From the NCBI RefSeq assembly GCF_030013595.1, contig NZ_CP122768.1: 64,000 bases of DNA. One strand, written 5' to 3'. The translations under genes and the position numbers were made by a program. Positions 5,301-54,824 of this stretch are shown piece after piece. The stretch comes from Escherichia coli (GTDB lineage: Bacteria > Pseudomonadota > Gammaproteobacteria > Enterobacterales > Enterobacteriaceae). Each line of letters begins with the position of its first letter. The first letter of the stretch is position 1. A model generated the notes under the pieces. The model had not been told where the DNA came from, searched no databases, and saw only the letters and a program-made list of their open reading frames with translations.

Positions 5301-7727
5301 TTAAACCTTTTCGATCTGGACAAGATTGCTGTGCGACGGGTTTCCCTTTGCCAGCGGTGAAGGGCGGTGAGAGGTCAGAATATTGATACTGCCGCCGTGA
5401 TCGACCCGGTCACCAAACATATCCGCTTTAAGCCACGCACCTTGCCCGATGGCGGTAACGCCAGGCAGAATACGCGGAGTCACTTTTGCGGCAATCAGCA
5501 TTTCTCCATTATTGTTAAATACCCGCACGGTATCGCCATGACGGATACCGCGTGCCTGAGCATCAATAGGGTTGATCCACACCTCTTGTGGGCAGGCCTG
5601 CTGTAACACATCAATATTGCCGTAGCTGGAGTGGGTACGCGCTTTGTAGTGGAAGCCCGTTAACTGCAGTGGATAGGTTTTCCGCAGGGGATCGTCCCAG
5701 CCATCAAAACCTGGGGTATACGCAGGAAGGGGATGAATAATTTCATCTTTTTTCAATTCCCAGGTATCCGCAATCGTCGCCAGTCGTTCAGAATAAATTT
5801 CGATTTTCCCCGAAGGTGTTTTCAACGGGTTTGCCTGTGGATCTTCACGGAATGCGCGGAAAGCGACGTAGTGTTCTTCCGGGCATTTTTTCTTAAAGAT
5901 CCCGGTCGTTTTCATCTCCTCGTAGTCGGGCATCTCAGGGTTACGTTCCTTCGTTTTCGCATGGAGATATTTGATCCATTCATGCTGACTGCGACCTTCA
6001 GTAAAGGTTTGATAAACGTCTGGTCCTAAGCGTTTGGCAACTTCACTCAGCATCCAGTAGATGGGTTTGCGTTCAAATTTTGCTGAGGTTGCGGGTTGGG
6101 CGAGGATCACATAGCCCATATTCCCGGCAGATTCGTGAGAGATAAGGTCTTCTTGCTCTGTTGGCATCAGGTCGGGCAACAGGATATCGCAATACTTAGC
6201 CGAGGCAGTCATGAAGTGGTCAATGCCAACAATCATCTCGCACTTGCTGTCATCCTGAAGCACCTCATGGGTGTGATTGATGTCGCCATGTTGATTGATC
6301 AATGTGTTACTGGCGTAGCACCATAAAAACTTGATGGGGACATCCAGTTTTTCTTTTCCACGAACACCATCACGGGTCGCGGTCATTTCCGTACCGTGGT
6401 CGATGGCATCTGTCCATGTAAAGACGGAAATCTGCGTTTTAACAGGATTCTCAAGCATCGGGAACCATTCTACCCCCAGATCCCAGCTACCTTCGCGTAC
6501 ACCTGAGTTGCCGCCGTTTATGCCGACGTTACCGGTGAGAACGGAAAGCATGGCAATAGCGCGGGACGTTTGTTCGCCGTTGGAGTGTCGTTGTGGCCCC
6601 CAACCCTGACAAATATAAGCAGGTTTTGCTGAACCGATCTCTCGTGCCAACTGGATAATTTTTTCTGCCGGGATGCTGGTGATTTTTGCTGCCCATTCCG
6701 GCGTTTTAGCTATGCCGTCAGGCCCTTCGCCCAGAATATAGGCTTTATAATGCGCGTTACGTGGTGCGTTGGCGGGCAGCGTTTTTTCATCGTAACCAAC
6801 ACAATATTTGTCGAGAAATGGCTGATCGACCATGTTTTCAGTAATCAGTACCCAGGCAATCGCACAGGCCAGTGCGCCATCGGTGCCTGGGCGAATTGGC
6901 AGCCATTCATCTTCACGCCCGGCAGCAGTGTCGTTATAACGTGGATCGATGACGATCATGCGTGCGTTTGAACGTTCTCGGGCTTGCTCGACGTAGTAAG
7001 TGACACCACCGCCGCTCATCCGGGTTTCTGCCGGGTTATTTCCGAACATAACGACCAGTTTCGTATTGGCTATATCATCCGGGCTGTTGCCATCATTGGC
7101 ACCGAACATATAACTCATTGCGGCACTGATTTGAGCGGTACTGTAGCTGCCATAGCGACTGAGAAAACCACCGCAAGAGTTCATCAGACGGTACGGGACG
7201 TTCGAGTTGGTGATGTTTCCGCCATCTACGCCTGTTCCGTACAGGACATGTACAGCCTCATTGCCGTAATCTTTAAGGATCCGCCGAAGATTATCACTGA
7301 TGGTATCCAGGGCTTCATCCCAACTTATCCGTTCAAATTTACCTTCACCGCGCTTGCCGACGCGCTTCATGGGATATTTCAACCTGTCAGGATGATTCAT
7401 CCGTCGGCGGATAGAGCGCCCGCGTAAACATGCCCGAACCTGATGATTACCGTAGACGTCGTCACCTGTCGTATCAGACTCCACCCAGTACACGGTGTCA
7501 TCTTTCACATGCAAACGTAACAGACAGCGGCTCCCGCAGTTAACGGTGCAGGAACTCCAGACCGCTTTCTCTTCTACCGGTGTCTCTGCCGCTCGGACCA
7601 TTTGGGAAAATGGCAGAGTGAAAGCACTGCTTGCCAGCGCAAGACTGCCAAGTGCGGAGGTTTTCATCAGACTTCTACGGCTGATTTCAGCCTTCATGAG
7701 CGCCTCTGTGGTATGGATTTTCATCAT
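5301..7727 (-). CDS. ynfF: molybdopterin oxidoreductase catalytic subunit (DmsA paralog) with Tat signal
   Basis: 808 aa; twin-arginine motif SRRSLMK; N-terminal CxxCxxxC cluster; intact paralog of the split ynfE. Confidence 0.9.
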   Translation of the reverse strand: MMKIHTTEALMKAEISRRSLMKTSALGSLALASSAFTLPFSQMVRAAETPVEEKAVWSSCTVNCGSRCLLRLHVKDDTVYWVESDTTGDDVYGNHQVRACLRGRSIRRRMNHPDRLKYPMKRVGKRGEGKFERISWDEALDTISDNLRRILKDYGNEAVHVLYGTGVDGGNITNSNVPYRLMNSCGGFLSRYGSYSTAQISAAMSYMFGANDGNSPDDIANTKLVVMFGNNPAETRMSGGGVTYYVEQARERSNARMIVIDPRYNDTAAGREDEWLPIRPGTDGALACAIAWVLITENMVDQPFLDKYCVGYDEKTLPANAPRNAHYKAYILGEGPDGIAKTPEWAAKITSIPAEKIIQLAREIGSAKPAYICQGWGPQRHSNGEQTSRAIAMLSVLTGNVGINGGNSGVREGSWDLGVEWFPMLENPVKTQISVFTWTDAIDHGTEMTATRDGVRGKEKLDVPIKFLWCYASNTLINQHGDINHTHEVLQDDSKCEMIVGIDHFMTASAKYCDILLPDLMPTEQEDLISHESAGNMGYVILAQPATSAKFERKPIYWMLSEVAKRLGPDVYQTFTEGRSQHEWIKYLHAKTKERNPEMPDYEEMKTTGIFKKKCPEEHYVAFRAFREDPQANPLKTPSGKIEIYSERLATIADTWELKKDEIIHPLPAYTPGFDGWDDPLRKTYPLQLTGFHYKARTHSSYGNIDVLQQACPQEVWINPIDAQARGIRHGDTVRVFNNNGEMLIAAKVTPRILPGVTAIGQGAWLKADMFGDRVDHGGSINILTSHRPSPLAKGNPSHSNLVQIEKV

Positions 7728-7784: not shown

Positions 7785-8810
7785 TTATATTTTTTCGATC
7801 TCGACCAGATTAGTGTGCTGCGGGTTTCCCTTCGCCAGTGGTGAAGGGCGCAGAGTGGTTAGCGTATTCACACAGCCGCCATGGTCGATTTTATCGCCAG
7901 ACATATTGGCCTCGTGCCAGGCTCCCTGGCCCATAGCGCTAACCCCAGGGAGAATGCGTGGTGTTACTTTGGCTGGTAGCCGAACTTCGCCACGATGGTT
8001 AAACACCCGCACCATATCGCCGTTGGCAATCCCACGTTTCTGTGCATCTATAGGGTTGATCCACACCTCCTGACGGCAGGCTTCCTTCAGGACATCAATA
8101 TTGCCGTAGGTCGAGTGGGTACGGGATTTGTAATGGAAACCAAACAGTTGCAGTGGGAAGGTTCTACGTTCAGGGGAGTCCCAGCCTTCAAAGGTTGAGG
8201 CATAAACTGGCAGTGGGCTTATCACTTCATCTTTTTCCAGTTCCCAGGTACGGGCAATTTCCGCCAGCTTGCTGGAATAAATTTCAATCTTACCGGAAGG
8301 CGTTTTAAGTGGATTTGCCTCGGGGTCGTCACGAAATGCTTTGTAGGCGACAAAATGACCATTGGGATCTTTACGCTTATAGATACCCATTTTTTTCAGT
8401 TCGTCGTAAGACGGTAACGCCGGATCTTTGGCAAGCATTTTGGCGTACAGATGTTGTAACCATTGTTCCTGCGTGCGACCTTCTGTGAACTTTTGATAGA
8501 CGTCAGGTCCAAGACGTTTCGCGACTTCACTCAGGATCCAGTAAATCGGTTTGCGTTCGAATTTTTCGCTGGTGACTGGCTGAAGGAAAATGAGATATCC
8601 CATGTTACCTGCGTAGTCGTTAGGAATAATATCTTCCTGCTCAACGGTCATCAGGTCTGGCAGCAGAATGTCGGCATATTTTGCCGATGAGGTCATAAAG
8701 TTTTCGATGACCACAATCATTTCGCATTTCGATTCGTCCTGCAGAATTTCATGCGTTTTGTTGATGTCAGAATGCTGATTAACCAGGGTATTTCCCGCGT
8801 AGTTCCAGAT
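7785..8810 (-). pseudogene. ynfE: ynfE C-terminal fragment (gene split by insertion at 8811)
   Basis: In-frame ynfE sequence from codons I-W-N-Y (8799-8810) to stop at 7785; ORF track upstream extension 8811-8951 is element DNA read in the wrong context. Confidence 0.85.
8801..8810. repeat. left copy of 10-bp direct repeat AGTTCCAGAT flanking the ynfE insert (att core or target duplication)
   Basis: Identical 10-mer at 18242-18251; both copies encode ynfE residues IWN. Confidence 0.8.
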
Positions 8811-8876
8811 GGACTCCACTGTCAGACGGATGGACGGACTTGAAGTAGTTGACTCAACGCTACTTAAGGTCCTGAT

Positions 8877-10485
8877 ATGACTGACATTAACTATGATAAT
8901 ACTGTATATCCATCCAGCTCTTTCTCTGGGTCTCCCTATCTGTATGGGCAAGTCTACACCTCAAGTCCTGACACAAGGCTGACACAAATCAATCTACTCA
9001 GCGTAGCTAAGCCTCAGTTAGTCCGTAGAGCCAATGGTCGATATACTATCCGCTTCAGACTCAAGGGACAGACCACACCGTTTCTTTCAGTATCGACCCG
9101 AAGCACAGACAGGAGAGTAGCCACAATGCGTCAGAGAGAGCTTGCAGCCACAGCTAAGGCCTTCATGTTGGATAGGCCTGAAGTCTCACTACAGGAGCTT
9201 ACAGAGCATCTCCGGTCTATGGCTGAGCAGTTCCTGACAGACGCTAGTGACGATTACTGGAATGGACTTGAGGTCGCTACTTTGGTGGACGAGAAGTCCA
9301 ACCTGAAGGAGCTAGCCGCTACGCAAGCCTTGAGTCTGGACCAGCAGAAGGGCATAAGGTTAGCGCTTGAAGTCCTGACCGCAGCACAGCAGAGGGTAGA
9401 TACTGGTGATACGTCCAGTCTAATCAAGCTGATTGGTGGTGGCGTAAGCCAGCTTACTGATGGAGATGACAATAACCTTACTAATAACTCAACTATATGC
9501 GACTCTACGTTGATTCTGAGGAACGAGCAGGGGGTCAGCCCGCAAGTATTCACGAGAGAGCGCCAACCATCTGTAGTTTTTTCAAGCCTAGTGTCCTCAC
9601 TGCTGGCTGAGAAGGTCCAGACCCTGAAGTCCTCCAGCTACAAGGACCTGTCGTCCTCACTGAATACCGTCTCTCGGTTTCTGCCTGAAGATATGGACCT
9701 GATGTCCCGCTCTGAGTGGCTGGCAGTGAGGGACGCTATGCTGGCTGCTGAGGTGAGACCATCGACAATCAACAAGCTGCTGACCAAAGCGAAGATGTGT
9801 CTCGATTATGGCCTGATGAATGGGCAACTTGAGGGCCGCAACCCTATTGAACGGATGAAGCTGACCAAGGATACCGACTCCAAGCGCAGAGCGTTCACAG
9901 ACGAGGAGCTGGAGAGACTTCTGGTCCGTGTTGAGGCTGAGTATCAGTTCACACGACACACGGCTCACACGACCTCTGAGGCCCGTAGATGGGCGTCTCT
10001 GGTGTCTGTGGTCACTGGCGCGAGGTCTGCTGAGGTCTGCCACCTGACTAAACGTGACGTTGTAACCTTGGACAATGGACTGGTCTGTATCGACATCAAT
10101 GAAGATGGGGACGGGAAGTCTGTGAAGAACAAACATTCAGTCCGACTTGTGCCGTTAACCGATGGGGCCTGTGGTTTCAGCCTGAAGTCCTTCCTCAAAT
10201 GGGTAGACACTCAGCCTGCTGATGGTCCCCTCTTTGGTATGACTCCGAGTGCCTACTCTAGTTGGTTTAACTCTAGGGTCCTGACTGAGGCCCTAGGAGA
10301 CGCTGAGAACGTTTCTCCACAGTCTGAGACATTGGCTGGCGACCCGAATGAAAGAGCGTGGAGTCAATCTGGTGGACGCTCAAGGCATCTTAGGTCACAG
10401 CAGTCAGTCCATTACGTATGACCTGTACGGGAAAGGACACGCTGTTGGTAGGCTGGCTGAGGTGCTGAAGACAGCTTTACTTTAA
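8877..10485 (+). pseudogene. tyrosine recombinase/integrase, apparently frameshifted near 10297-10330
   Basis: N-terminal arm-binding-like segment (GRYTIRFRLKG...STRSTDRRVA); catalytic domain residues in frame A up to 10421; conserved HSLRHWLATRM...LGHSS...YDLYGKGH C-terminus is in the +1 frame ending at 10485. Confidence 0.65.
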
Positions 10486-10644
10486 GTAGGAAGACCCAAG
10501 GTGGAGACCATATACGGCTTGATGGTTGAGACCTTGGGTCACTGAAGTCTGACTGAAGTTAGGGAGGGTGATAATAATCATAATCCCTCCTGACTATAGG
10601 CCCACTGGTTCGCCTTCGGCTGTCCGACTCTAAGTCTGTCTGTG

Positions 10645-10776
10645 GTCTTATTTAAACTGGTTCCCTAACTCAGGTCCTCCAACTTGGTGTCTTATTTAAA
10701 CTGGTTCCCTAACTCAGGTCCTCCAACTTGGTGTCTTATTTAAACTGGTTCCCTAACTCAGGCCCCTCCAAATTTC
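10645..10776 (+). repeat. 44-bp tandem direct repeat, about 2.7 copies (candidate iterons/origin or regulator binding array)
   Basis: Unit GTCTTATTTAAACTGGTTCCCTAACTCAGGTCCTCCAACTTGGT at 10645-10688 and 10689-10732, third copy diverges after about 30 bp. Confidence 0.8.
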
Positions 10777-10792: not shown

Positions 10793-10818
10793 TTAAATAT
10801 CCCCTCACCTTAGAAGAG
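10793..10818 (+). promoter_or_regulatory. phage single-subunit-RNAP-type promoter P1 (class A, CCCCTCAC upstream)
   Basis: TTAAATATCCCCTCACCTTAGAAGAG; T7-supergroup -17..+6 architecture, predicted +1 G at 10813. Confidence 0.55.
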
Positions 10819-10833
10819 TTTAGGGTTCAGACC

Positions 10834-10857
10834 CTTAACTATCACCTTAGGAGAGAC
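10834..10857 (+). promoter_or_regulatory. phage single-subunit-RNAP-type promoter P2 (class B, AACTATCAC upstream)
   Basis: CTTAACTATCACCTTAGGAGAGA; predicted +1 G at 10850; 45 bp upstream of ORF 10902. Confidence 0.55.
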
Positions 10858-11424: not shown

Positions 11425-11448
11425 GAATACCCCCTCACTATAGGGACA
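11425..11448 (+). promoter_or_regulatory. phage single-subunit-RNAP-type promoter P3 (class A; T3-like CC at -11/-10)
   Basis: GAATACCCCCTCACTATAGGGACA; 13/13 match to T7 consensus from -9 to +4 (CTCACTATAGGGA). Confidence 0.7.
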
Positions 11449-11451
11449 CCC

Positions 11452-11477
11452 CCTAAACTATCACTATAGGGGGGACC
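11452..11477 (+). promoter_or_regulatory. phage single-subunit-RNAP-type promoter P4 (class B)
   Basis: CTAAACTATCACTATAGGGGGGACC; TCACTATAGGG core. Confidence 0.65.
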
Positions 11478-11712
11478 AACCTTGCCTCTGCTTCTGATGC
11501 GTCAGAACACGCGAGGTCCTCCCGACATTAAGTATTCTCCTAAGTAATCAAGGCCCGTGACCGCCTCTGACAGACCTCCTGTATCGACCTCCAGCTCGTT
11601 AGCGTTCTTTAGTCGTCTCGGTTAGTAGGTAACCGGCTCATTTAAACCGTCTGGTCTGTTTCCTCCGGCTCTACAAAAATAATGTCCATCATTTTTTAAT
11701 GGACACTATCGT

Positions 11713-12360
11713 ATGAAACACCGGACCTGGATCACTGAAGCTTTACGTCTTCACTTTGAAGAACATTTACCCCGGGTTGTGGCCGGGCGTCGCCTGGGTG
11801 TACCAAAATCAACAGTTTGTAGTATGTTCGTGCGCTTTCGGAGAGCTGGCCTTTCGTGGCCTTTGCCCGCAGGCATGTCGGAGCAGGAACTTGATGCCTG
11901 CCTTTACGGACAATTTTCCACGGTACCAGTCGTACGTCCTGAAAGCACCGTTATATCCGAAGCCCCCGTGGTAAAAAAACGTCCCCGGCGGCCCAACTTC
12001 CCTTATGAGTTTAAAATCGCCTTAGTGGAGCAGTCACTGCAGCCCGGAGCCTGTGTGGCGCAGATCGCCCGGGAAAACGGAATCAACGATAACCTGCTCT
12101 TCAACTGGCGCCATCAATACCGGAAAGGTGGCCTGCTGCCTTCCGGAAAAAATATGCCGGCACTGCTTCCCGTGACGTTAACGCCGGAGCCGGATAATAA
12201 AATCCCGGCCCCCGCACAGGAACCAGAGCAGATAAATACACCGTCCGACAGTCTGTGTTGTGAGCTGGTTCTGCCGGCCGGAACTCTCAGGCTTAAAGGT
12301 AAACTGACGCCGGCGTTATTACAGACACTTATCCGCGAAATAAAAGGGAGCAGCCACTGA
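11713..12360 (+). CDS. IS66 accessory protein (orf1/TnpA-like)
   Basis: 215 aa, first ORF of IS66 triad; identical to copy-2 ORF. Confidence 0.8.
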   Translation: MKHRTWITEALRLHFEEHLPRVVAGRRLGVPKSTVCSMFVRFRRAGLSWPLPAGMSEQELDACLYGQFSTVPVVRPESTVISEAPVVKKRPRRPNFPYEFKIALVEQSLQPGACVAQIARENGINDNLLFNWRHQYRKGGLLPSGKNMPALLPVTLTPEPDNKIPAPAQEPEQINTPSDSLCCELVLPAGTLRLKGKLTPALLQTLIREIKGSSH

Positions 12361-12707
12361 TGATATCTCTCCCTGCAGGTTCGCGTATCTGGCTGGTTGC
12401 AGGTATCACCGATATGCGAAATGGCTTTAACGGCCTGGCATCAAAAGTTCAGAACGTCCTGAAGGATGACCCGTTCTCCGGACACCTGTTCATCTTCCGC
12501 GGACGCCGGGGTGACCAGATAAAAGTGTTGTGGGCTGACAGTGACGGACTGTGCCTCTTCACCAAACGCCTGGAGCGGGGCCGCTTCGTCTGGCCAGTCA
12601 CCCGTGACGGCAAGGTGCACCTTACTCCGGCTCAGTTATCCATGCTTCTTGAAGGTATCAACTGGAAGCACCCGAAACGAACGGAACGCGCTGGAATCCG
12701 CATATAA
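12360..12707 (+). CDS. IS66 Orf2 (TnpB-like)
   Basis: 115 aa, overlapping start with preceding stop (ATGA); typical IS66 orf2. Confidence 0.8.
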   Translation: MISLPAGSRIWLVAGITDMRNGFNGLASKVQNVLKDDPFSGHLFIFRGRRGDQIKVLWADSDGLCLFTKRLERGRFVWPVTRDGKVHLTPAQLSMLLEGINWKHPKRTERAGIRI

Positions 12708-12726
12708 CCCGTTGTAAAGTGAGGAT

Positions 12727-14298
12727 ATGGACACCTCACTTGCTCATGAGAACGCCCGCCTGCGGGCACTGTTGCAGACGCAACAGGACACCATCCGCCA
12801 GATGGCTGAATACAACCGCCTGCTCTCACAGCGGGTGGCGGCTTATGCTTCCGAAATCAACCGGCTGAAGGCGCTGGTTGCGAAACTGCAACGTATGCAG
12901 TTCGGTAAAAGCTCAGAAAAACTTCGTGCAAAAACCGAACGGCAGATACAGGAAGCACAGGAGCGAATCAGCGCACTTCAGGAAGAAATGGCGGAAACGC
13001 TGGGTGAGCAATATGACCCGGTACTGCCATCCGCCCTGCGCCAGTCTTCAGCCCGTAAACCGTTACCGGCCTCACTTCCCCGTGAAACCCGGGTTATCCG
13101 GCCGGAAGAGGAATGCTGTCCTGCCTGTGGTGGTGAACTCAGTTCTCTGGGATGTGATGTGTCAGAGCAACTGGAGCTTATCAGCAGCGCCTTTAAGGTT
13201 ATCGAAACACAACGTCCGAAACAGGCCTGTTGCCGGTGCGACCATATCGTACAGGCACCAGTACCTTCAAAACCCATTGCACGCAGTTATGCCGGAGCGG
13301 GGCTTCTGGCCCATGTTGTCACCGGGAAATATGCAGACCATCTGCCGTTATACCGCCAGTCAGAAATATACCGTCGTCAGGGAGTGGAGCTGAGCCGTGC
13401 CACACTGGGGCGCTGGACAGGTGCTGTTGCTGAACTGCTGGAGCCGCTGTATGACGTCCTGCGCCAGTATGTGCTGATGCCCGGTAAAGTCCATGCTGAT
13501 GATATCCCCGTCCCGGTCCAGGAGCCGGGCAGCGGTAAAACCCGGACAGCCCGGCTGTGGGTCTACGTCCGTGATGACCGTAACGCCGGTTCACAGATGC
13601 CCCCGGCGGTCTGGTTCGCGTACAGTCCGGACCGGAAAGGTATCCATCCACAAAATCACCTGGCCGGTTACAGCGGTGTGCTTCAGGCCGATGCTTACGG
13701 TGGTTACCGGGCGTTATACGAATCCGGCAGAATAACGGAAGCCGCGTGTATGGCTCATGCCCGGAGAAAAATCCACGATGTGCATGCAAGAGCGCCCACC
13801 TACATCACCACGGAAGCCCTGCAGCGTATCGGTGAACTGTATGCCATCGAGGCAGAGGTCCGGGGCTGTTCAGCAGAACAGCGTCTGGCGGCAAGAAAAG
13901 CCAGAGCCGCGCCACTGATGCAGTCACTGTATGACTGGATACAGCAACAGATGAAAACACTGTCGCGTCACTCAGATACGGCAAAAGCGTTCGCATACCT
14001 GCTGAAACAGTGGGATGCACTGAACGTGTACTGCAGTAATGGCTGGGTGGAAATCGACAACAACATCGCAGAGAACGCCTTACGGGGAGTGGCCGTAGGC
14101 CGGAAAAACTGGATGTTCGCGGGTTCCGACAGCGGTGGTGAACATGCGGCGGTGTTGTACTCGCTGATCGGCACATGCCGTCTGAACAATGTGGAGCCAG
14201 AAAAGTGGCTGCGTTACGTCATTGAACATATCCAGGACTGGCCGGCAAACCGGGTACGCGATCTGTTGCCCTGGAAAGTTGATCTGAGCTCTCAGTAA
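12727..14298 (+). CDS. IS66-family DDE transposase (Orf3/TnpC)
   Basis: 523 aa with leucine-zipper-like N-terminus, CxxC...CxxC zinc motif and DDE region. Confidence 0.85.
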
Positions 14299-14582
14299 AT
14301 ATCAATACGGTTCTGACGAGTCGCTTACGTTAGTAGCTCGTCTACTCACTACATTGGCTTAAGTCTATCACCGCTCACCATCTGGAGTCCTTACAGCTCG
14401 TCCTGACATGCGGTCTCACCTTATATGCACATGGAGAACATGGCCACTCCAGACCAACACTAATCAACATTAACCCTATTCACTTTCGTTAAGCATTTTT
14501 TGGTGGGTCCGTTTGGATGCATTGAATAGGTGCGGACTCCACGTGGAGACAGAAAGTGCTTTACTAAAGGAGCATCCTTTAT

Positions 14583-14972
14583 ATGACTATTAAATCCATC
14601 GTTATCAACGGTAAGACCATCCTGTCTACACCTAACGCCATCAATGAGGGTGTCTGGTTCGACATGCTTGAGGTCCATCAAGCTGCTGGCTTGCCTGCTA
14701 ACAAGACGTTCTCACAGTGGCGCAGCCGACAGTCTCGTGCATTAGAAGAGGCTGGAGAGGTGTCGTTTGACAGTGTACAGAAGACCCTGTGTGGCAGCTT
14801 TGTGGCAGTGCTGGCCTACCTTATGTGGGCGGACCTTACTCTCTGGCTGGCGGTGGTTCGTTACGTTGCGTCTGAGACTATCGGCGTCCTGCCTGACCGC
14901 TTCAAGTCTATCGACGGTGATAACCCCGAGTTAGAAATGTCAGAGGATAACAGCGAGTGGGAGGACTTCTAA
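14583..14972 (+). CDS. KilA-N domain protein (short)
   Basis: 129 aa; N-terminal motif WFDMLEVHQAAGLPANK...WLAVVRYV resembling KilA-N; strong RBS AAGGAG. Confidence 0.55.
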   Translation: MTIKSIVINGKTILSTPNAINEGVWFDMLEVHQAAGLPANKTFSQWRSRQSRALEEAGEVSFDSVQKTLCGSFVAVLAYLMWADLTLWLAVVRYVASETIGVLPDRFKSIDGDNPELEMSEDNSEWEDF

Positions 14973-15716: not shown

Positions 15717-15941
15717 ATGGCTATGATTGACCCTCGTACACCTATCGGCAAAGCGACCCTTCGTTACCGTGGTCTGCCTACACGTCATCTGCTGTCCCTG
15801 CTGAGACTTGGAGTCGAAGACCCCGAACGCCCGTACTACAGTCGAGACGAGCTAATAGCTATGTTGGTGGACCGTGATTTAGACAATCAGTTACGCCGAG
15901 CCTTTGCGAAGTCTAGCGCAGCTAGGGAACTGGAGTCCTGA
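15717..15941 (+). CDS. hypothetical protein
   Basis: 74-aa ORF, start 3 nt after preceding stop, same strand. Confidence 0.45.
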   Translation: MAMIDPRTPIGKATLRYRGLPTRHLLSLLRLGVEDPERPYYSRDELIAMLVDRDLDNQLRRAFAKSSAARELES

Positions 15942-16146: not shown

Positions 16147-16638
16147 ATGTTATTCAACAACAACGACTGGAAACTATCAGTCACCGACATCAATCCCTAT
16201 GAAAATACTGTGAGTCTGGACGGTCAGTCCTATCCGCTGTCTCTGGCGATTAAGACCCTGATTCCGGGCTACCTGTCAGGCTTACCGTCCACCAGCCGCG
16301 AGGCGATGGAGTTACTGGAAGCTCTGGCTGAAGCTGGCGTGTCCATTGGCAACTTCTTCAGTAATGACCTGATGACCGCCTATGGTCGCCGCCAGCAGAA
16401 CAAGCGAGCCGAAGCTGAGCGTATTGCTAAAGAGCAGCGCATTCAGGCTGAGCGTATGCGTGAAGAGAACATGACTGATGCAGAGTGGCAGAAAGAGCTA
16501 CAGCGCCGTGAACAGGTCAAAGCTGAACGCCGGACCTATGGTGAGCACCTCCGCAGTGCTACCCATTCCGCTGGGCGCTCCCGTGCTTCTATGGTCGCTG
16601 ACATTGAGTCCACGGACAACTGGATGGACAGCCTCTAA
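16147..16638 (+). CDS. hypothetical charged coiled-coil protein (scaffold-like?)
   Basis: 163 aa; RBS AGGAG; C-terminal K/R/E-rich helical segment. Confidence 0.5.
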   Translation: MLFNNNDWKLSVTDINPYENTVSLDGQSYPLSLAIKTLIPGYLSGLPSTSREAMELLEALAEAGVSIGNFFSNDLMTAYGRRQQNKRAEAERIAKEQRIQAERMREENMTDAEWQKELQRREQVKAERRTYGEHLRSATHSAGRSRASMVADIESTDNWMDSL

Positions 16639-16704
16639 GACACAGACACACAAGTGGTCCTGACCTGATGTCGGGACCCACAGTATCCAAACTAATTTAG
16701 GAGA

Positions 16705-17700
16705 TTGATTATTATGACGATTAAAGACGCTTTCCAGTTCGGCATTGAGCCAGTACGTATCAGCGACACCGACAACATTCAGATTAACGAAGGTTTGCCA
16801 ACTAACGCAGACCCGCAGGTCTATGCCCTCCAGTTAGCTAAGACGGTTAAGGCTATGCTGAACGGTGTACTTAAAGACGCTCAAGAGAACATCCCGTTCC
16901 CTGTAGAAGTCCTGCCGACCCGCAATAGCCTGCCTACTCCAATCATTGCTCACACTCTGGCTGATCGCTCTGTGGTCGTTCCTGTCCGTGGTGGTAAGCG
17001 ACCTGAAGTCGTGACCGTTCCGTCTGGACAAGAAATCGTGGTCGAACCAATCGAGCAGGCTATTCTCATCTCTGAGCAGACCAAGCTCTGGGACGCCAAG
17101 TCATCCACCGGATTCACTCAGGGCACACTTCAGCAGGACGCTATGAACATCTGTGAGAATGTGGTCCGTACCATCAACGCTCGCATGGTCGACGTTCTGG
17201 AGTCCTCCAAACTGTTGAAGACCGTAGAGCTGCCAGTCCTGACTGGAAGCCTGACCACTAAGGCAGACGCTATCATGGACGCTCTGTTTGAGAACACCGA
17301 GTCCTCTTTCGGCTCTGAAGTGTCTGATTACGGCATCATCGCCCATGAGTCCCAACTGAAAGCGCTGTCCCGTCTGGCAGCTAAACAGGGCTTCTCTGGT
17401 GGAGACGCTATCGTGGATATGCTGGGTACCGACATCGCCTATTACAACGGTGAAGACAAGGGTGTATTCATGCTGGCTAAACGCTTCACGGCCCTGAGCT
17501 TCGGCTGCTTCCGTCACGACGGTGAGAATATTACGGTCGTCCTTTCACGTGATGGCGACTCTCAGTCCCACGACTTGGAAATCCTCGGTAAAGTGTTCGT
17601 TGTCGCTGAAGCTGCTACGACCATCAAGATGGGCACTGGCTCAGCTACTGCCGTCCTGCCTGTAGTCAAACGCCTGAAGTTCACCAAGACCGAAGCGTAA
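16705..17700 (+). CDS. hypothetical 331-aa protein (possible virion/structural protein; unverified)
   Basis: Long ORF with RBS AGGAG directly downstream of coiled-coil ORF; no motif recognised. Confidence 0.5.
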   Translation: MIIMTIKDAFQFGIEPVRISDTDNIQINEGLPTNADPQVYALQLAKTVKAMLNGVLKDAQENIPFPVEVLPTRNSLPTPIIAHTLADRSVVVPVRGGKRPEVVTVPSGQEIVVEPIEQAILISEQTKLWDAKSSTGFTQGTLQQDAMNICENVVRTINARMVDVLESSKLLKTVELPVLTGSLTTKADAIMDALFENTESSFGSEVSDYGIIAHESQLKALSRLAAKQGFSGGDAIVDMLGTDIAYYNGEDKGVFMLAKRFTALSFGCFRHDGENITVVLSRDGDSQSHDLEILGKVFVVAEAATTIKMGTGSATAVLPVVKRLKFTKTEA

Positions 17701-17844
17701 GACCAATGGGTAAGAGGTAAGTCTGGACTGAATATCAGCAGGACTTCAGGTGGTGGCCTGTCACTGTGATTAACTAACTACGGTCTGGACCAATGGTCTG
17801 GGCCTTATTACTGGTATGGTAGTATACAGGCGAAGGAGGACCCA

Positions 17845-18000
17845 ATGTCTATGACTTCCGCAGACCTAAGGTCCCTCCTGACTCTGGTCTATAAACTCGT
17901 GTTCCTCTCTGTGGGTCTCTACATGGTTCTCTCTGGTCGACTCGGTGTGGATGTGTTCGACACTCTGTCTAAGGCTGTGGGTGGACTTCTAGGTCCTTAG
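17845..18000 (+). CDS. small hydrophobic protein (51 aa, one predicted TM helix)
   Basis: ATG 17845 with RBS GAAGGAGG; LVFLSVGLYMVLSG hydrophobic core; below ORF-track length cutoff. Confidence 0.4.
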   Translation: MSMTSADLRSLLTLVYKLVFLSVGLYMVLSGRLGVDVFDTLSKAVGGLLGP

Positions 18001-18241
18001 GTTTGGACTCACAGTGGGACCGATGATTTCTGACAGAAAAATGTGAATGACCATCTAATACATTAAGCCAGCAGACTTCCCCCCATAGTCCCGCCTCAAG
18101 TCCAGACCGAGGCCACCGGGGGTCCTGACCAGCCGTCTAGACATCCCGTCTAATGACACAAGTCTGGCACAAAGCCTGACACAAAGTCCTTGACTCAATG
18201 CAGGACCTCAGGCCTACTAAGGGTCCGCTTCAAGTCCTTGA

Positions 18242-18251
18242 AGTTCCAGAT
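18242..18251. repeat. right copy of 10-bp direct repeat AGTTCCAGAT
   Basis: Identical to 8801-8810; ynfE sequence resumes here. Confidence 0.8.
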
Positions 18252-19652
18252 GAACTTAATGGGCACATCCAGTTTATCTTTGCCGCGGACGCCGTCGCGG
18301 ATTGCCGTCATTTGCGGGCCATGATCGATAGCATCCGTCCAGCTGAAGCAGGAGATTGACGTTTTGACCGGATTATCCAGCACCGGTAGGCGTTCTATGG
18401 TAATGGTATAGGTCGATTCACGCGCGCCACTATTCCCGCCGCTGATGCCGACATTGCCCGTCAAAATAGGCAACATAGCAATAGCGCGTGCGGTCAGCTC
18501 ACCGTTTGCCTGGCGTTGCGGCCCCCAGCCCTGGCAGATATAAGCGGGTTTTGCTGTGCCAATTTCACGCGCCAGTTTGATGATACGGTCCACCGGGATA
18601 CCGGTAATTTGCGAAGCCCACTGCGGCGTTTTCGCTGTTTTATCGTCACCTTCACCAAGAATATAGGCTTTATAGTGACCATTTTTTGGTGCATCTGCGG
18701 GTAAGGTTTTTTCGTCATAGCCGACGCAGTATTTATCAAGAAAAGGTTGATCAACGAGATTTTCGTTAATCAATACCCAGGCAATACCCGCAACCAGCGC
18801 GGCATCGGTGCCCGGGCGAATAGGAAGCCATTCGTCTTCACGACCGGCAGCCGTATCGGTATATCGCGGATCGATAACAATCATTTTTGCGTTCGATTTC
18901 TCGCGCGCTTTTTCAAGAAGATAAGTGATGCCACCACCGCTCATGCGGGTTTCTGCCGGGTTGTTACCAAACATCACGACCAGCTTGCTGTTTTCAATAT
19001 CCGTGGTGCTGTTGCCATCATTACTGCCGTAGGTGTAGGGCATGGCACAGGAAATTTGCGCGGTGCTGTAGGAGCCATACTGGTTGAGTGAGCCGCCGTA
19101 GCAGTTCATCAGGCGTTTGACCGCCGAGGCGGATGGCGAAGAGCGGGTCATATTGCCGCCAACAATCCCCGAAGAGTACTGAATATATACAGCCTCATTG
19201 TCATATTGTTCGACGGTTTTTTTCAGGCTACTGGCGATAGTATCCAGGGCTTCATCCCAGCTAATCCGTTCGAATTTGCCTTCGCCGCGTTTGCCCACGC
19301 GTTTCATTGGGTAATTCAAGCGGTCGGGATGATTAATACGCCGACGGATGGAGCGACCGCGCAAACAGGCGCGTACTTGATGATTGCCATACTCATCGCT
19401 GCCGGTGTTGTCAGTTTCCACCCAGGTCACTTCATTATCTTTAACATGCAGACGAAGTGCACAGCGGCTACCACAGTTGACGGAACAGGCACCCCAGACC
19501 ACTTTCTCGCTGGCCTGTTGTACTGCTGCCGCTGCACTGCGCAGGGTGAACGGTAAAGAAAAACCGCCTGCAGCCAGCGCCAGAGAACCTATCGCGGTAG
19601 ATTTAACGAGTGTTCTGCGGCTGATGCCCACCATTTGTTCATTTTTGGACAT
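18243..19652 (-). pseudogene. ynfE: ynfE N-terminal fragment (Tat signal, catalytic subunit) ending at insertion junction
   Basis: 470 ynfE codons from MSKNEQMVGISRRTLVKS to IWN at 18243; ORF then runs 16 codons into element DNA to a stop at 18195. Confidence 0.85.
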
Positions 19653-25801: not shown

Positions 25802-25831
25802 GTAAGCGACTCGTCAGAACCGTATTGATAT

Positions 25832-27403
25832 TTACTGAGAGCTCAGATCAACTTTCCAGGGCAACAGATCGCGTACCCGGTTTGCCGGCCAGTCCTGGAT
25901 ATGTTCAATGACGTAACGCAGCCACTTTTCTGGCTCCACATTGTTCAGACGGCATGTGCCGATCAGCGAGTACAACACCGCCGCATGTTCACCACCGCTG
26001 TCGGAACCCGCGAACATCCAGTTTTTCCGGCCTACGGCCACTCCCCGTAAGGCGTTCTCTGCGATGTTGTTGTCGATTTCCACCCAGCCATTACTGCAGT
26101 ACACGTTCAGTGCATCCCACTGTTTCAGCAGGTATGCGAACGCTTTTGCCGTATCTGAGTGACGCGACAGTGTTTTCATCTGTTGCTGTATCCAGTCATA
26201 CAGTGACTGCATCAGTGGCGCGGCTCTGGCTTTTCTTGCCGCCAGACGCTGTTCTGCTGAACAGCCCCGGACCTCTGCCTCGATGGCATACAGTTCACCG
26301 ATACGCTGCAGGGCTTCCGTGGTGATGTAGGTGGGCGCTCTTGCATGCACATCGTGGATTTTTCTCCGGGCATGAGCCATACACGCGGCTTCCGTTATTC
26401 TGCCGGATTCGTATAACGCCCGGTAACCACCGTAAGCATCGGCCTGAAGCACACCGCTGTAACCGGCCAGGTGATTTTGTGGATGGATACCTTTCCGGTC
26501 CGGACTGTACGCGAACCAGACCGCCGGGGGCATCTGTGAACCGGCGTTACGGTCATCACGGACGTAGACCCACAGCCGGGCTGTCCGGGTTTTACCGCTG
26601 CCCGGCTCCTGGACCGGGACGGGGATATCATCAGCATGGACTTTACCGGGCATCAGCACATACTGGCGCAGGACGTCATACAGCGGCTCCAGCAGTTCAG
26701 CAACAGCACCTGTCCAGCGCCCCAGTGTGGCACGGCTCAGCTCCACTCCCTGACGACGGTATATTTCTGACTGGCGGTATAACGGCAGATGGTCTGCATA
26801 TTTCCCGGTGACAACATGGGCCAGAAGCCCCGCTCCGGCATAACTGCGTGCAATGGGTTTTGAAGGTACTGGTGCCTGTACGATATGGTCGCACCGGCAA
26901 CAGGCCTGTTTCGGACGTTGTGTTTCGATAACCTTAAAGGCGCTGCTGATAAGCTCCAGTTGCTCTGACACATCACATCCCAGAGAACTGAGTTCACCAC
27001 CACAGGCAGGACAGCATTCCTCTTCCGGCCGGATAACCCGGGTTTCACGGGGAAGTGAGGCCGGTAACGGTTTACGGGCTGAAGACTGGCGCAGGGCGGA
27101 TGGCAGTACCGGGTCATATTGCTCACCCAGCGTTTCCGCCATTTCTTCCTGAAGTGCGCTGATTCGCTCCTGTGCTTCCTGTATCTGCCGTTCGGTTTTT
27201 GCACGAAGTTTTTCTGAGCTTTTACCGAACTGCATACGTTGCAGTTTCGCAACCAGCGCCTTCAGCCGGTTGATTTCGGAAGCATAAGCCGCCACCCGCT
27301 GTGAGAGCAGGCGGTTGTATTCAGCCATCTGGCGGATGGTGTCCTGTTGCGTCTGCAACAGTGCCCGCAGGCGGGCGTTCTCATGAGCAAGTGAGGTGTC
27401 CAT
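25832..27403 (-). CDS. IS66-family DDE transposase (Orf3/TnpC)
   Basis: 523 aa identical to 12727..14298 product. Confidence 0.85.
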
Positions 27404-27422
27404 ATCCTCACTTTACAACGGG

Positions 27423-27770
27423 TTATATGCGGATTCCAGCGCGTTCCGTTCGTTTCGGGTGCTTCCAGTTGATACCTTCAAGAAGCATGGATAACTGAGC
27501 CGGAGTAAGGTGCACCTTGCCGTCACGGGTGACTGGCCAGACGAAGCGGCCCCGCTCCAGGCGTTTGGTGAAGAGGCACAGTCCGTCACTGTCAGCCCAC
27601 AACACTTTTATCTGGTCACCCCGGCGTCCGCGGAAGATGAACAGGTGTCCGGAGAACGGGTCATCCTTCAGGACGTTCTGAACTTTTGATGCCAGGCCGT
27701 TAAAGCCATTTCGCATATCGGTGATACCTGCAACCAGCCAGATACGCGAACCTGCAGGGAGAGATATCAT
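27423..27770 (-). CDS. IS66 Orf2 (TnpB-like)
   Basis: 115 aa identical to copy 1. Confidence 0.8.
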   Translation of the reverse strand: MISLPAGSRIWLVAGITDMRNGFNGLASKVQNVLKDDPFSGHLFIFRGRRGDQIKVLWADSDGLCLFTKRLERGRFVWPVTRDGKVHLTPAQLSMLLEGINWKHPKRTERAGIRI

Positions 27771-28417
27771 CAGTGGCTGCTCCCTTTTATTTCGCGGATA
27801 AGTGTCTGTAATAACGCCGGCGTCAGTTTACCTTTAAGCCTGAGAGTTCCGGCCGGCAGAACCAGCTCACAACACAGACTGTCGGACGGTGTATTTATCT
27901 GCTCTGGTTCCTGTGCGGGGGCCGGGATTTTATTATCCGGCTCCGGCGTTAACGTCACGGGAAGCAGTGCCGGCATATTTTTTCCGGAAGGCAGCAGGCC
28001 ACCTTTCCGGTATTGATGGCGCCAGTTGAAGAGCAGGTTATCGTTGATTCCGTTTTCCCGGGCGATCTGCGCCACACAGGCTCCGGGCTGCAGTGACTGC
28101 TCCACTAAGGCGATTTTAAACTCATAAGGGAAGTTGGGCCGCCGGGGACGTTTTTTTACCACGGGGGCTTCGGATATAACGGTGCTTTCAGGACGTACGA
28201 CTGGTACCGTGGAAAATTGTCCGTAAAGGCAGGCATCAAGTTCCTGCTCCGACATGCCTGCGGGCAAAGGCCACGAAAGGCCAGCTCTCCGAAAGCGCAC
28301 GAACATACTACAAACTGTTGATTTTGGTACACCCAGGCGACGCCCGGCCACAACCCGGGGTAAATGTTCTTCAAAGTGAAGACGTAAAGCTTCAGTGATC
28401 CAGGTCCGGTGTTTCAT
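27770..28417 (-). CDS. IS66 accessory protein (orf1/TnpA-like)
   Basis: 215 aa identical to copy 1. Confidence 0.8.
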   Translation of the reverse strand: MKHRTWITEALRLHFEEHLPRVVAGRRLGVPKSTVCSMFVRFRRAGLSWPLPAGMSEQELDACLYGQFSTVPVVRPESTVISEAPVVKKRPRRPNFPYEFKIALVEQSLQPGACVAQIARENGINDNLLFNWRHQYRKGGLLPSGKNMPALLPVTLTPEPDNKIPAPAQEPEQINTPSDSLCCELVLPAGTLRLKGKLTPALLQTLIREIKGSSH

Positions 28418-28501
28418 ACGATAGTGTCCATTAAAAAATGATGGACATTATTTTTGTAGAGCCGGAGGAAACAGACCAGACGGTTTAAATGAGCCGGTTA
28501 C

Positions 28502-35877: not shown

Positions 35878-36273
35878 GTGGCAAAAGTTTTTACACAGGA
35901 AGAGCGGGAAAAAATTAAAGAGCAGGTGGTCGAACTTGTGCGCCAGAGCGGTCGCGAGACATTACGACAGTTGGAAGCTAAAACAGGTGCGACAAGATAT
36001 CTGATGAGCATTCTTGCCAGAGAGCTGGTTGCCAGTGGTTATGTATACAACTCCGGCTACGGGTTATTCCCGTCTGAACAGGCACGAAAGGACTGGCAAA
36101 ATGCCCGCAAAAAACTCTCTAGGGCGAAGGTGAAGAAACCCGCTGTGGTTGATCCGGACCTTATCTGGTCACTACCTGATGGAGAAATACGTCGCTACGA
36201 CAGTCGTCTAAACATAATCTGTCGCGAGTGCCGGAAGAGCGAAGTTATGCAGCGCATATTGTCGTTTTATTAG
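35878..36273 (+). CDS. hypothetical protein
   Basis: 131-aa ORF with RBS AAGGAGG. Confidence 0.5.
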   Translation: MAKVFTQEEREKIKEQVVELVRQSGRETLRQLEAKTGATRYLMSILARELVASGYVYNSGYGLFPSEQARKDWQNARKKLSRAKVKKPAVVDPDLIWSLPDGEIRRYDSRLNIICRECRKSEVMQRILSFY

Positions 36274-36615
36274 GGAAATGTTCGGTATCTATTTAAGTGA
36301 CGAGATTAAAGTGCATTAGTTAAGATGTAAATTGACATTTTCATGGCATAGGGTAGAGGTAGCGTGGTTGTCTGCTTTGTGCCATGAACTGATGTCGCTT
36401 GTGTGCGTGGCAATTAGTGTATAACGGATATCATCAGACTCCAGCAGTAGCATTGCTTGAGCATACTAACATATGAAATCTTTAGTTAACGTAAGATAAA
36501 TTAGATTTAGTTTTTTTGAGTATGAGCTCATAAATAATCAAAAAAACTTGATACGCCATATGACTTTGATTTATTTTGGGAAAATATAAAGGTAATGTAA
36601 TGTAAAGAGGAAAAT

Positions 36616-44898: not shown

Positions 44899-45111
44899 TC
44901 ATGAAAGGTAAACATTGGCAGCTGAAGGGCCACGCAGACCATTTATCCGGCAAAATTCCACGCGTAATCCGGTGGTAATTTCTTCTGCATCGCGGAGATT
45001 GAGCGCTGAAACATGAAGCTGGACATCGATACGACCATCGGATGGGGTGATAAGACCCTTGCCGCTTTTGCCGTCAAAGGTTTTGACAATTCCTGTCATT
45101 TTACGGGACAA
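44899..45111 (-). CDS. cspF: cold-shock-domain protein (CspF/CspH-like)
   Basis: 70 aa [13 protein letters not shown]... CSD fold. Confidence 0.75.
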
Positions 45112-45411
45112 AAAAATTCCTTAATACTGATAACTTGGCGCACTATACACACGTTCCTGAAGAAAGCTATAGTTTTTTGATGGGGTTGAAGATGGCTGGA
45201 TGTCTAAAATAAACATTGCTTCATATGTTCAACTATGCGTTAATGATTGCGTCGGTTTGAAGAACAGACGATATACGAAGTAGTTTACTAAAGCAGTTCT
45301 CATTTCAGGTGTTATTCACTTATTCCTTCTTTGAGTCTCTCCAATTAAGTACGAAGTCGTTTCTGTTATGCAAACCATTTATGCCGAAAGGCTCAAGTTA
45401 AGGAATGTAGA

Positions 45412-45627
45412 ATGTCAAATAAAATGACTGGTTTAGTAAAATGGTTTAACGCTGATAAAGGTTTCGGCTTTATTTCTCCTGTTGATGGTAGTAAAGATGT
45501 GTTTGTGCATTTTTCTGCGATTCAGAATGATAATTATCGAACCTTATTTGAAGGTCAAAAGGTTACCTTCTCTATAGAGAGTGGTGCTAAAGGTCCTGCA
45601 GCAGCAAATGTCATCATTACTGATTAA
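45412..45627 (+). CDS. cspB: cold-shock protein CspB
   Basis: 71 aa [23 protein letters not shown]... Confidence 0.85.
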
Positions 45628-45990
45628 AATTCATCGCTCGTCTGTATACGATAACGAAGAAGGCTGATGCCTGAGTAGAGATACGGACAGAGTAGTGAAT
45701 ATTGGATTTCTTTAATAAAAATTAAGGAGGTCCAATACATGAAACAATGGTCAGCATATTTGGCAAAATCTTAATCAGGAAAAGTATGCTAACCATTGTG
45801 GTGAAGTGCAGGTTTGCTGCATGAATAGTTTTACAGCAGAAGCTAACTGCTGGCATGGCAAAACAAAGTGCGTAAGTGGATGACTCCCACAAAAAGCACC
45901 ACAATCTCAAACCCGCTCAGGCGGGTTTTTTATTATCTGCTTTAAATATATTATTAAAATATAAAAAATACTTGTTACTAATAAAATCAA

Positions 45991-46596: not shown

Positions 46597-46600
46597 TCCA

Positions 46601-46911: not shown

Positions 46912-47935
<1,024 letters not shown>

Positions 47936-51143: not shown

Positions 51144-54824
<3,681 letters not shown>

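Follow-up and report, generated by a model that had tools for sequence, protein, structure and literature searches.

A DUF6971-family protein and an HK97-fold capsid-like protein encoded by an island in Escherichia coli ynfE: candidate capsid module of a minimal satellite of T7-like phages

We have analysed a 64,000-nucleotide stretch of an Escherichia coli chromosome (NCBI RefSeq assembly GCF_030013595.1, contig NZ_CP122768.1; hereafter, the window), which covers the region around ynfF-ynfE-ynfD and carries, inside ynfE, an integrative island with two adjacent open reading frames (ORFs) of 163 and 331 codons. We propose that the two ORFs constitute the capsid module of a capsid-encoding, integrative minimal satellite of T7-like (Autographiviridae) phages, the copy in the window being tuned to K1F-like Kayfunavirus helpers, and we put the probability of this reading at about 0.65. 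The coordinates of the island features are collected in Table 1.

An earlier note on this DNA, made from the letters alone, had described a charged helical protein of 163 residues, a protein of 331 residues and a single-transmembrane protein of 51 residues, and had compared the gene order with that of scaffold and capsid genes in capsid-forming satellites. All three ORFs exist on the plus strand with the lengths and positions that it gave, and each is preceded by a Shine-Dalgarno-like sequence (ORF starts at 16147, 16705 and 17845). The 163-residue protein is rich in R, K and E over residues ~83-136, which fits the description, and the 51-residue product has one hydrophobic stretch. The likelier start of the 331-codon frame is an ATG at 16714 located behind AGGAGA, and we therefore refer below to a 328-amino-acid protein. 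The region carrying the ORF pair was found in 314 of 5,426 complete E. coli genomes (~6%). Comparison with relatives at synonymous divergence (dS) of up to 1.3 revealed ratios of nonsynonymous to synonymous divergence (dN/dS) of 0.12-0.18 for the 328-codon gene and 0.08-0.40 for the 163-codon gene, i.e., purifying selection on both. These low ratios, the number of genomes and the presence of an adjacent pair of homologues in distant genera indicate that the two are more than chance ORFs. The 51-codon ORF is kept in close E. coli relatives only. The proteins had been called unrecognisable from sequence, and the family libraries agree: no significant match to the 163-, 328- and 51-residue products came out of scans of the island proteins with Pfam, PHROG, NCBIfam and PADLOC.

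Since AlphaFold with 13 close homologues of the 328-amino-acid protein produced an unusable model (predicted local distance difference test score, pLDDT, 42.5), the result rests on a deeper alignment. Distant homologues were collected by an exhaustive search of 1.8 billion representatives with a profile hidden Markov model, which retrieved 64 relatives, including proteins of 300-530 amino acids with 20-40% identity. With 43 relatives as the alignment, the model reached a pLDDT of 82.7 and a predicted template modelling score (pTM) of 0.76. As can be seen in this model, the protein has an N-arm, an E-loop hairpin, a long spine helix, a P-domain sheet and an A-domain, and it has no delta domain. 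A Foldseek search of AFDB and BFVD agrees with the HK97 fold, so that the structural check which the earlier note had proposed for 16705-17700 came out in favour of a capsid; the same search placed the protein close to no known viral lineage outside its own small family. Thus, according to its predicted structure, the 328-amino-acid protein is an HK97-fold major-capsid-like shell protein.

The sequence of the shell protein falls outside the curated capsid families (Pfam phage-coat clan, PHROG head families, NCBIfam). One member of the capsid alignment gave a non-significant match to Phage_cap_P2 (E 0.068), and a profile of that alignment found no match among PDB sequences. No encapsulin Pfam domain was found. 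Some of the homologues carry C-terminal Big_2 or Ig domains, which are typical of proteins exposed on virions.

The gene upstream of the capsid-like gene was assigned to a family by profile-profile comparison. The E. coli-type family of the 163-amino-acid protein was aligned by hhalign with the family encoded immediately upstream of distant, Klebsiella/Vibrio/Pseudomonas-type capsid homologues (probability 98.8%, E 8e-17, 134 columns), and the Klebsiella member of the latter family matches PDB entry 5EUR (E 4.6e-46) and Pfam DUF6971 (2e-33). By this route the protein belongs to the DUF6971 family, which includes the uncharacterised crystal structure 5EUR; a direct phmmer comparison with 5EUR gave a weak match (E 0.059). 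Common to the members are a domain at the N-terminus, a C-terminal half that is helical and charged, and a short tail of hydrophobic residues at the C-terminus. A family member always lies immediately upstream of the major capsid protein (MCP) gene, and the adjacent pair is conserved across genera, which, together with the HK97 fold of the downstream product, supports the scaffold-then-capsid order of the earlier note. Profile scans detected no enzymatic or ferritin-like domain in the 163-amino-acid protein, and the RefSeq name that its homologue bears in some genomes ("peptidase M16 family protein", e.g., WP_000898379.1, L001 10804-11295; L numbers are our labels for compared loci) has no profile support. 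Given the fixed gene order, the charged helical C-terminal half, the hydrophobic tail and an MCP that lacks a delta domain, a role in scaffolding or assembly is the best guess, and the protein is presumed to be the dedicated assembly partner of the shell protein, probably a scaffold.

The link to T7-like phages comes from promoters. Sites were assigned to the T7 group when they fitted the 23-nt consensus with a (C/T)CAC(T/C)(A/T)TAGG core and an initiating GGG or GGA and matched the set of a specific phage, and a promoter weight matrix was built from ten promoters of the K1F-like phage phiYIO1-1 (L017, Kayfunavirus). The phage's own sites score 29.7-35.5 bits on this matrix, and the best score in 50 shuffled versions of the window was 18.9 bits; the scores in Table 1 are to be compared with these values. 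The island sites fit the T7-group description and are predicted to be active with phage RNA polymerase (RNAP). CCTAAACTATCACTATAGGGGGG matches phiYIO1-1 promoters exactly over 18-19 nt, AATACCCCCTCACTATAGGGACA shares the T7 core CTCACTATAGGGA, and the CACCTTAGG variant located ahead of the accessory ORF is also found in phiYIO1-1, upstream of its primase/helicase gene. In the related island L001, the promoter is identical at 24 of 24 nt to the phage promoter just upstream of the capsid gene (the phi10 equivalent). The matched sites are annotated as promoters in the records of EcoDS1, CR44b and PE3-1. No σ70-type promoter was predicted ahead of the late genes of the island.

At both promoter positions two sites stand in tandem that differ in their upstream specificity regions, CCCCTCAC... 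and AACTATCAC... (CCCCT vs AACTA), and the island looks wired for two different phage RNAPs. Only the second type could be matched to a phage group, Kayfunavirus. The 17-mer of the first type, CCCCCTCACTATAGGGA, had exact matches in only two IMG/VR contigs, neither of which showed island similarity by BLAST, and one of which, L024, is unrelated.

Every related island has repeated T7-group promoters of its own in the orientation of its genes; usually, they stand as a tandem pair behind the integrase gene and again ahead of the capsid module. Wherever compared, they match T7-like phages of the respective host. The promoter of a V. cholerae island is identical to those of VP3/VP4 (24 of 24 nt), Klebsiella island promoters match T7 and Klebsiella T7-like phages and are within one base of the T7 consensus, and a Pseudomonas-type island promoter shows a weak match (21 of 23 nt) to a promoter of a Pseudomonas T7-like phage.

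In addition to promoters, the island contains segments that resemble the DNA ends of the presumed helper. In both T7 and K1F, the only TATCTGT of the plus strand coincides exactly with the inner terminal-repeat boundary (T7 nt 146-166, K1F nt 163-187); this site is the concatemer junction, where T7 RNAP pauses and concatemers are processed. We described it as ATCTGT(T/A) following a TCTCTG.GTC..C context at the terminal-repeat boundary. The motif near the left end of the island has these properties, and its local alignment with K1F nt 163-187 scored above all 100 shuffles; a role in pausing or cutting is putative. A junction-like motif is present once, on the gene strand, in eight of nine independent islands. 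Since its reading frame varies, or it falls outside the integrase gene altogether, it is constrained as DNA and not as protein. Its variant tracks the promoter type: TATCTGTAT accompanies K1F-type promoters and TATCTGTTA the T7-type ones (L007, Klebsiella).

The right end of the island carries a segment similar to the K1F terminal repeat, with a local alignment score of 39, whereas shuffles reached at most 30-31 (z 7.5-8.5), and CCCCATAG-type motifs also occur towards the right ends of L005, L008 and L015 and within the putative attP region of L021. On excision, the two end segments would come to lie on either side of the attP core, separated by ~245 nt and located downstream of the late operon, and the order of promoter, terminal repeat and junction on the predicted circle is the topology of a T7 concatemer. 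A hairpin located between the integrase gene and the first promoter pair is also of phage type: 28-32 nt are identical to sequence close to the right genome end in ~240 T7-like phage records. In those whose annotation was read, the large terminase gene and gene 19.5 enclose the hairpin, and in many others it is situated near a genome end.

Several further observations concern these segments. The stem-loop of the shared hairpin is inverted in phiYIO1-1 (L017 40046-40077) relative to IMM-002 (L010 1501-1528) and K1F (L022 ~38981-39010), and the flanking ATACAGATAGTCAC keeps its orientation despite the inversion; at the equivalent place in T7, between phiOR and gene 19.5, there is a different hairpin, GGTGAT...ATCACC. 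An inverted, weaker terminal-repeat-like copy at 17989-18025 overlaps the end of the 51-codon ORF. CTCACAGTG (18008-18016), contained in this copy, resembles the T7 genome terminus TCTCACAGTG and could be a DNA cutting site; an 8-9-mer by itself is not significant.

The boundaries of the island are defined by a 10-bp direct repeat that is conserved in relatives, and joining its outer flanks restores the ynfE reading frame. The insertion splits and inactivates ynfE, which encodes a selenate/dimethyl sulfoxide reductase-type catalytic subunit (7785-8951 and 18195-19652); the adjacent paralogue ynfF is intact. TGACACAA-type repeats are found near both ends, and the repeats of family D3 listed in Table 1 are probably arm-type recombinase sites. 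The island measures 9.4 kb in the window and 6.7 kb without an IS66-family insertion; because this insertion is secondary, being absent from the relatives L001 and L002, the element proper is ~6.7 kb. Intact, IS-free islands are present, for example, in strains MB20 (CP073976) and EC100 (CP182308). All island genes, for the integrase, the accessory ORF, two KilA-N-like proteins and the 74-, 163-, 328- (capsid) and 51-residue products, lie on the same strand. Among these eight ORFs, Pfam, PHROG and NCBIfam scans revealed no gene for portal, terminase, protease, tail or replication functions.

Islands of the same design (integrase, KilA-N/Bro-N-like, DUF6971-like and capsid genes; 4.5-7 kb) are present in distant contexts of Klebsiella, Serratia, Vibrio (including V. 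cholerae) and Pseudomonas type, and in metagenomes. One relative, L021 (SRR22560133), is a 6.5-kb contig that starts with the end of the DUF6971 gene and ends with its beginning. Since it is circularly permuted and has no host flanks, we take it for a circular or concatemeric free form. Its TGACACAAGG repeats, the same as the left-arm repeat of the window, bracket a non-coding putative attP between the capsid module and the integrase gene. Logan contigs of 6-7 kb with a capsid gene, considered as further excised circles, turned out to be ordinary chromosomal fragments. The capsid gene also occurs in IMG/VR loci, which, at the level of gene presence, gave no sign of packaging.

A larger relative, L004 (Logan ERR5982074, a 12-kb contig), has four identical T7-type promoters, a 527-amino-acid capsid homologue, an HNH endonuclease gene, a ParE-like gene and a gene for a protein with a Phage_T7_GP04 Pfam match. 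Its positions 7342-7361 match the extreme left terminus of K1F (TCACAGTTCAAGA..CTCAA) at 18 of 20 nt.

The computations show the fold of the capsid protein, the conserved gene pair, the limits of the island, the similarities in promoters, junction, terminal repeat and hairpin, a design common to the family and one circular free form, and from these the following course of events can be proposed. The island would stay silent in ynfE until infection, when the single-subunit RNAP of an infecting T7-like phage would read the island promoters, with predicted transcript starts at the G's of CACTATAGGG (~11469) and CACCTTAGG (~10850), and the genes for KilA-N, orf74, orf163, MCP and orf51 would be transcribed. 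The tandem promoters may also prime replication; at the T7 primary origin, it is tandem promoters that prime replication. The integrase would excise the element, and the circle would join the terminal-repeat-like right end to the junction-like left end, rebuilding a mimic of the helper concatemer junction that would serve as a packaging signal downstream of the late operon. The replication, terminase, portal/core and tail proteins of the helper would have to be hijacked, since the island encodes none of them. Shell protein and scaffold would build a capsid sized for ~6.7 kb; the 40-kb helper genome would not fit into it, and interference with the helper would be probable. Simple volume scaling leads to the speculation that this capsid is of T=3 type. 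Whether all this extends to an unrecognised, widespread class of 4.5-7-kb satellites of virulent T7-like phages in Enterobacteriaceae, Vibrio and Pseudomonas, with a helper-RNAP induction switch (possibly doubling as a replication primer), a private two-gene small capsid on the helper portal/core and a packaging signal split by integration and rejoined on excision, seems to us an evenly balanced question.

Several points weigh against the satellite reading. Expression, excision, replication and packaging of the island are what we infer from its sequence. The E. coli-type attP junction that excision is predicted to create, GCTTCAAGTCCTTGAAGTTCCAGATGGACTCCACTGTCAG, was found neither in JGI metagenome contigs, searched with two patterns, nor in IMG/VR. 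The copy of the island in the window may be impaired, since 2.7 kb of added IS66 sequence stands between its main promoter pair and its late genes. The similarities at the ends span only 27 and 37 nt, and the spacing of ~245 nt compares with ~140 nt in K1F. The scaffold role of the 163-amino-acid protein derives from synteny, composition and the missing delta domain, and no structural or sequence match to a known scaffold supports it. Neither protein resembles its helper counterpart: hhalign detected no similarity between the island capsid protein and helper gp10, BLASTP none between the 163-amino-acid protein and helper gp9, and tblastn of the 328-amino-acid protein against 50,697 phage records found no relative. 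For these reasons, the assembly of a foreign shell on a T7-type portal/core is hypothetical.

Phage promoters by themselves would suit a defence gene equally well, and one can imagine a phage-triggered system in which the helper RNAP turns on a decoy capsid and its partner, which poison or sequester phage assembly, with no packaging involved. Such promoters would make an ideal infection sensor, and this view would also accommodate the lack of packaging genes, a shell protein unrelated in sequence to that of the helper, a variable accessory slot behind phage promoters of its own and a weak PADLOC candidate match of the KilA-N protein (PDC-S22, E 2e-4). A pure defence gene, however, would need neither the junction and terminal-repeat mimics at the two island ends nor the right-end hairpin, and the family is equipped with an integrase and conserved arm repeats and includes a free form that is circularly permuted. 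Interference and transfer are, besides, compatible, and known satellites do both; we consider defence without transfer unlikely. The absence of a portal means that the island proteins must contact helper head parts anyway, and the 328-amino-acid protein might accordingly co-assemble with or cap helper gp10 to redirect capsid size, as Ccm of SaPIbov5 does, with the 163-amino-acid protein as a CpmB-like internal size-determining scaffold. Ccm, though, is recognisably homologous to the capsid protein of its helper, whereas no relationship to gp10 is detectable here, and a complete shell with a dedicated partner, recurring across genera with different helpers, is more simply explained as self-sufficient. 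Redirection of gp10 is, in our opinion, rather improbable.

Two further explanations would dispense with a present role in phage transfer. T7-type promoters, a terminal-repeat-like sequence and an integrase might be what is left of an integrated T7-like temperate phage without present function, and many Shigella copies are indeed truncated. Yet a 4.5-7-kb set of integrase, KilA-N-like, DUF6971-like and MCP genes turns up in Enterobacteriaceae as well as in Vibrio and Pseudomonas-like genomes, its members are intact and evolve under purifying selection, and the capsid protein lies outside the T7 gp10 sequence family, so that decay is a very unlikely explanation. An encapsulin-like nanocompartment, with the 328-amino-acid protein as shell, the 163-amino-acid protein as cargo and a cellular role unrelated to phages, is suggested by the short hydrophobic C-terminal tail of the upstream-neighbour family (FGL, YGF, GLF, DSL), which could be a targeting peptide. 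The genes, however, lie within an integrase island among phage promoters and mimics of phage ends, some homologues have Ig-like surface domains, and the pair shows neither the encapsulin Pfam domain nor an enzymatic or ferritin-like partner; an encapsulin sequence family, an enzymatic or ferritin-like cargo with a targeting peptide and a context free of mobile or viral genes are not what is seen. AlphaFold models of capsid proteins often take on the procapsid or encapsulin conformation, and any resemblance of the model to encapsulins could, in our view, come from that alone. We regard a nanocompartment as extremely improbable, and the comparison with capsid-forming satellites made in the earlier note is supported as an interpretation, with function still inferred.

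Table 1. Island features in order along the window
Feature	Position	Strand	Remarks
attL core GTTCCAGATG	8802-8811	+	left boundary inside ynfE, codons I-W-N
Tyrosine integrase, 514 aa	8877-10421	+	PHROG 1 integrase, E 6e-24; RefSeq "site-specific integrase" in relatives
Concatemer-junction-like motif TCTTTCTCTGGGTCTCCCTATCTGTAT	8919-8945	+	resembles right boundary of K1F terminal repeat plus TATCTGTAT
Repeat (C)TGACACAAGGCTGACACAAA, left arm	8962-8988	+	direct-repeat family D3, copies near both island ends
Strong hairpin just past integrase gene	10493-10540	+	inverted repeat I11; fold of 10485-10610, z -3.15
Hairpin GGAGGGTGATAATAATCATAATCCCTCC	10563-10590	+	common to Kayfunavirus-group phages
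Three tandem 44-nt units in variable region	10645-10776	+	repeat family D1
Promoter-like pair AAATATCCCCTCACCTTAGAAGAG + CCTTAACTATCACCTTAGGAGAG	10796-10855	+	CACCTTAG(G/A) type; second site (10833) 23.8 bits on weight matrix
Variable accessory ORF, 166 aa	10902-11402	+	no family match
Tandem phage-RNAP promoters, predicted, AATACCCCCTCACTATAGGGACA + CCTAAACTATCACTATAGGGGGG	11426-11474	+	second site (11452) 29.5 bits on weight matrix
IS66-family insertion	11629-14328	+	three IS66-type ORFs; 8-bp target duplication GTTAGTAG
129-aa protein, KilA-N-like N-terminus	14583-14972	+	weak similarity to adjacent KilA-N protein and KilA-N-like genes of other islands
Predicted KilA-N/anti-repressor-like DNA-binding protein, 246 aa	14974-15714	+	PHROG 129/63, E ~1e-11; core gene of family
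74-aa ORF	15717-15941	+	tblastn 58-100% identity in L001, L002, L012-L016 (E. coli-type islands)
163-aa ORF, DUF6971-family gene	16147-16638	+	presumed scaffolding/assembly partner; position as in the earlier note
331-aa ORF from TTG	16705-17700	+	position as in the earlier note
HK97-fold capsid-like gene, predicted	16714-17700	+	328 aa; ORF opens with TTG at 16705
Hairpin past capsid gene	17782-17804	+	possible terminator or processing site; terminator-like scan; fold z -1.85, weak
51-aa ORF	17845-18000	+	one hydrophobic segment, strong ribosome-binding site; last gene ahead of right island end
Terminal-repeat-like segment TCCCCCCATAGTCCCGCCTCAAGTCCAGACCGAGGCC	18078-18114	+	similar to K1F terminal repeat nt 24-61
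Repeats TGACACAAGTCTGGCACAAAGCCTGACACAAA, right arm	18147-18185	+	repeat family D3
attR core GTTCCAGATG	18243-18252	+	right boundary; same 10-mer as attL

Homologues of the 246-amino-acid KilA-N protein were found in L008 (54%), L007, L005, L018 (Bro-N) and L020 (KilA-N). An unrelated ORF of 122 codons occupies the accessory slot in L001, and at the position of the 44-nt repeats this island has about three different ~60-nt repeats (8130-8400), each with TTGACA, which recall the triple early promoters of T7. The 51-codon ORF is the last gene before the terminal-repeat-like segment, a relative position that it shares with T7-group gene 19.5 (49-52 residues, also hydrophobic). Despite the like position and size it was rejected as a gp19.5 homologue, as BLASTP found no similarity and a forced alignment reached 22-31% identity. 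Neither Rfam nor tRNA scans of the island gave a match.

Outside the island, a second, 100% identical 2,700-bp copy of the IS66 element is present at 25802-28501 in inverted orientation, 11.5 kb away, and recombination between the two copies could invert the segment with the late genes of the island and ynfE-ynfA. The composition of the window shifts strongly, with a GC content of 0.33-0.39 at 36000-38000 and 45000-50000 and of 0.55-0.61 over 51000-64000, which suggests further horizontally acquired segments. Comparison with L001 places a relBE/hokD Qin-like region near 41 kb of the window.

Among known systems, capsid-forming phage-inducible chromosomal islands (cfPICIs) and Ccm of SaPIbov5, as satellite-encoded HK97 proteins, are functionally closest to the island, and PICMIs (phage-inducible chromosomal minimalist islands) are closest in size. 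According to published descriptions, cfPICIs (e.g., EcCI2; PDB 9gyi) measure 10-15 kb, encode a portal, a prohead protease, head-tail connectors and a small terminase of their own, and take only tails, from temperate siphophages, whereas the island is of the T7-like virulent helper type with phage-RNAP promoters. The eight ORFs of the 6.7-kb element gave no portal, protease, connector or terminase match, and the island supplies only a shell protein and its partner, which have no detectable sequence relationship to those of cfPICIs. Ccm of SaPIbov5 (PDB 7rwz) is a homologue of the helper capsid protein encoded on a classical PICI backbone with a cos site, whereas the island protein has no similarity to helper gp10 and the architecture of the element is different. 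P4, likewise small and integrative, is a satellite of an E. coli phage; it obtains small capsids and uses the structural machinery of its helper except for the size determinant, but it places the external scaffold Sid on the P2 capsid protein, encodes a primase/helicase of its own, carries a cos site and depends on a temperate myovirus.

The proposed use of cis signals has a laboratory counterpart: Chung and Hinkle reportedly observed in 1990 that plasmids with a T7 origin and a concatemer junction are packaged by T7. There, too, a promoter/origin and a concatemer junction suffice in cis, the logic that the island appears to copy; those plasmids were laboratory constructs in normal T7 heads, whereas the island is natural and integrative and has a shell of its own. 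PICMIs of Vibrionaceae resemble the island as integrative satellites that exploit virulent phages, are very small (~5-6 kb) and get by with a minimal set of genes; according to their description (PMC10803314), they differ by having no capsid-remodelling genes, by integrating next to fis and by three core excision/replication proteins. The island, unlike PICMIs, has capsid and partner genes, T7-group cis signals and no recognisable replication gene. Tailless "mini" HK97 entities from gut metagenomes (Aguilar et al., bioRxiv 10.1101/2025.06.18.659913) are similar in being ~9-kb temperate elements with an integrase, an MCP and a scaffold and without portal, terminase or tail genes, and dissimilar in their encapsulin Pfam MCPs, RepA or helicase, and sigma factors; in the same work they were read as procapsid-like or encapsulin intermediates, with no link to T7 satellites. 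Markers of P4 (alpha primase, Sid, Psu, delta), PICIs (alpA, primase-rep, terS/ppi), PICMIs (location next to fis, primase) and PICI-like elements (PLEs) were absent from the island according to PHROG, NCBIfam and Pfam. A search of the open literature for satellites of T7-like phages or Autographiviridae, for DUF6971 and for 5EUR returned nothing relevant, subscription journals being outside its scope. The island family thus appears to be a new, previously undescribed kind of satellite of T7-like phages.

T7-like phages are the best-studied virulent phages and common candidates for therapy, and we know of no described satellite that exploits them. If our reading is true, an integrase, a DNA-binding protein, a scaffold-like protein and a shell protein would be the smallest known gene set of a capsid-forming satellite, and the island would be a clean natural case of induction by the helper's own RNAP. 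Its two genes would provide an HK97 shell system in which the determination of capsid size and the docking of a foreign shell to a portal could be studied. About 6% of complete E. coli genomes, as well as Klebsiella, Vibrio cholerae and Pseudomonas, would harbour a hidden source of resistance to, or interference with, K1F-, T7-, VP4- and gh-1-like phages, and a function would be assigned to DUF6971 and to the orphan crystal structure 5EUR.

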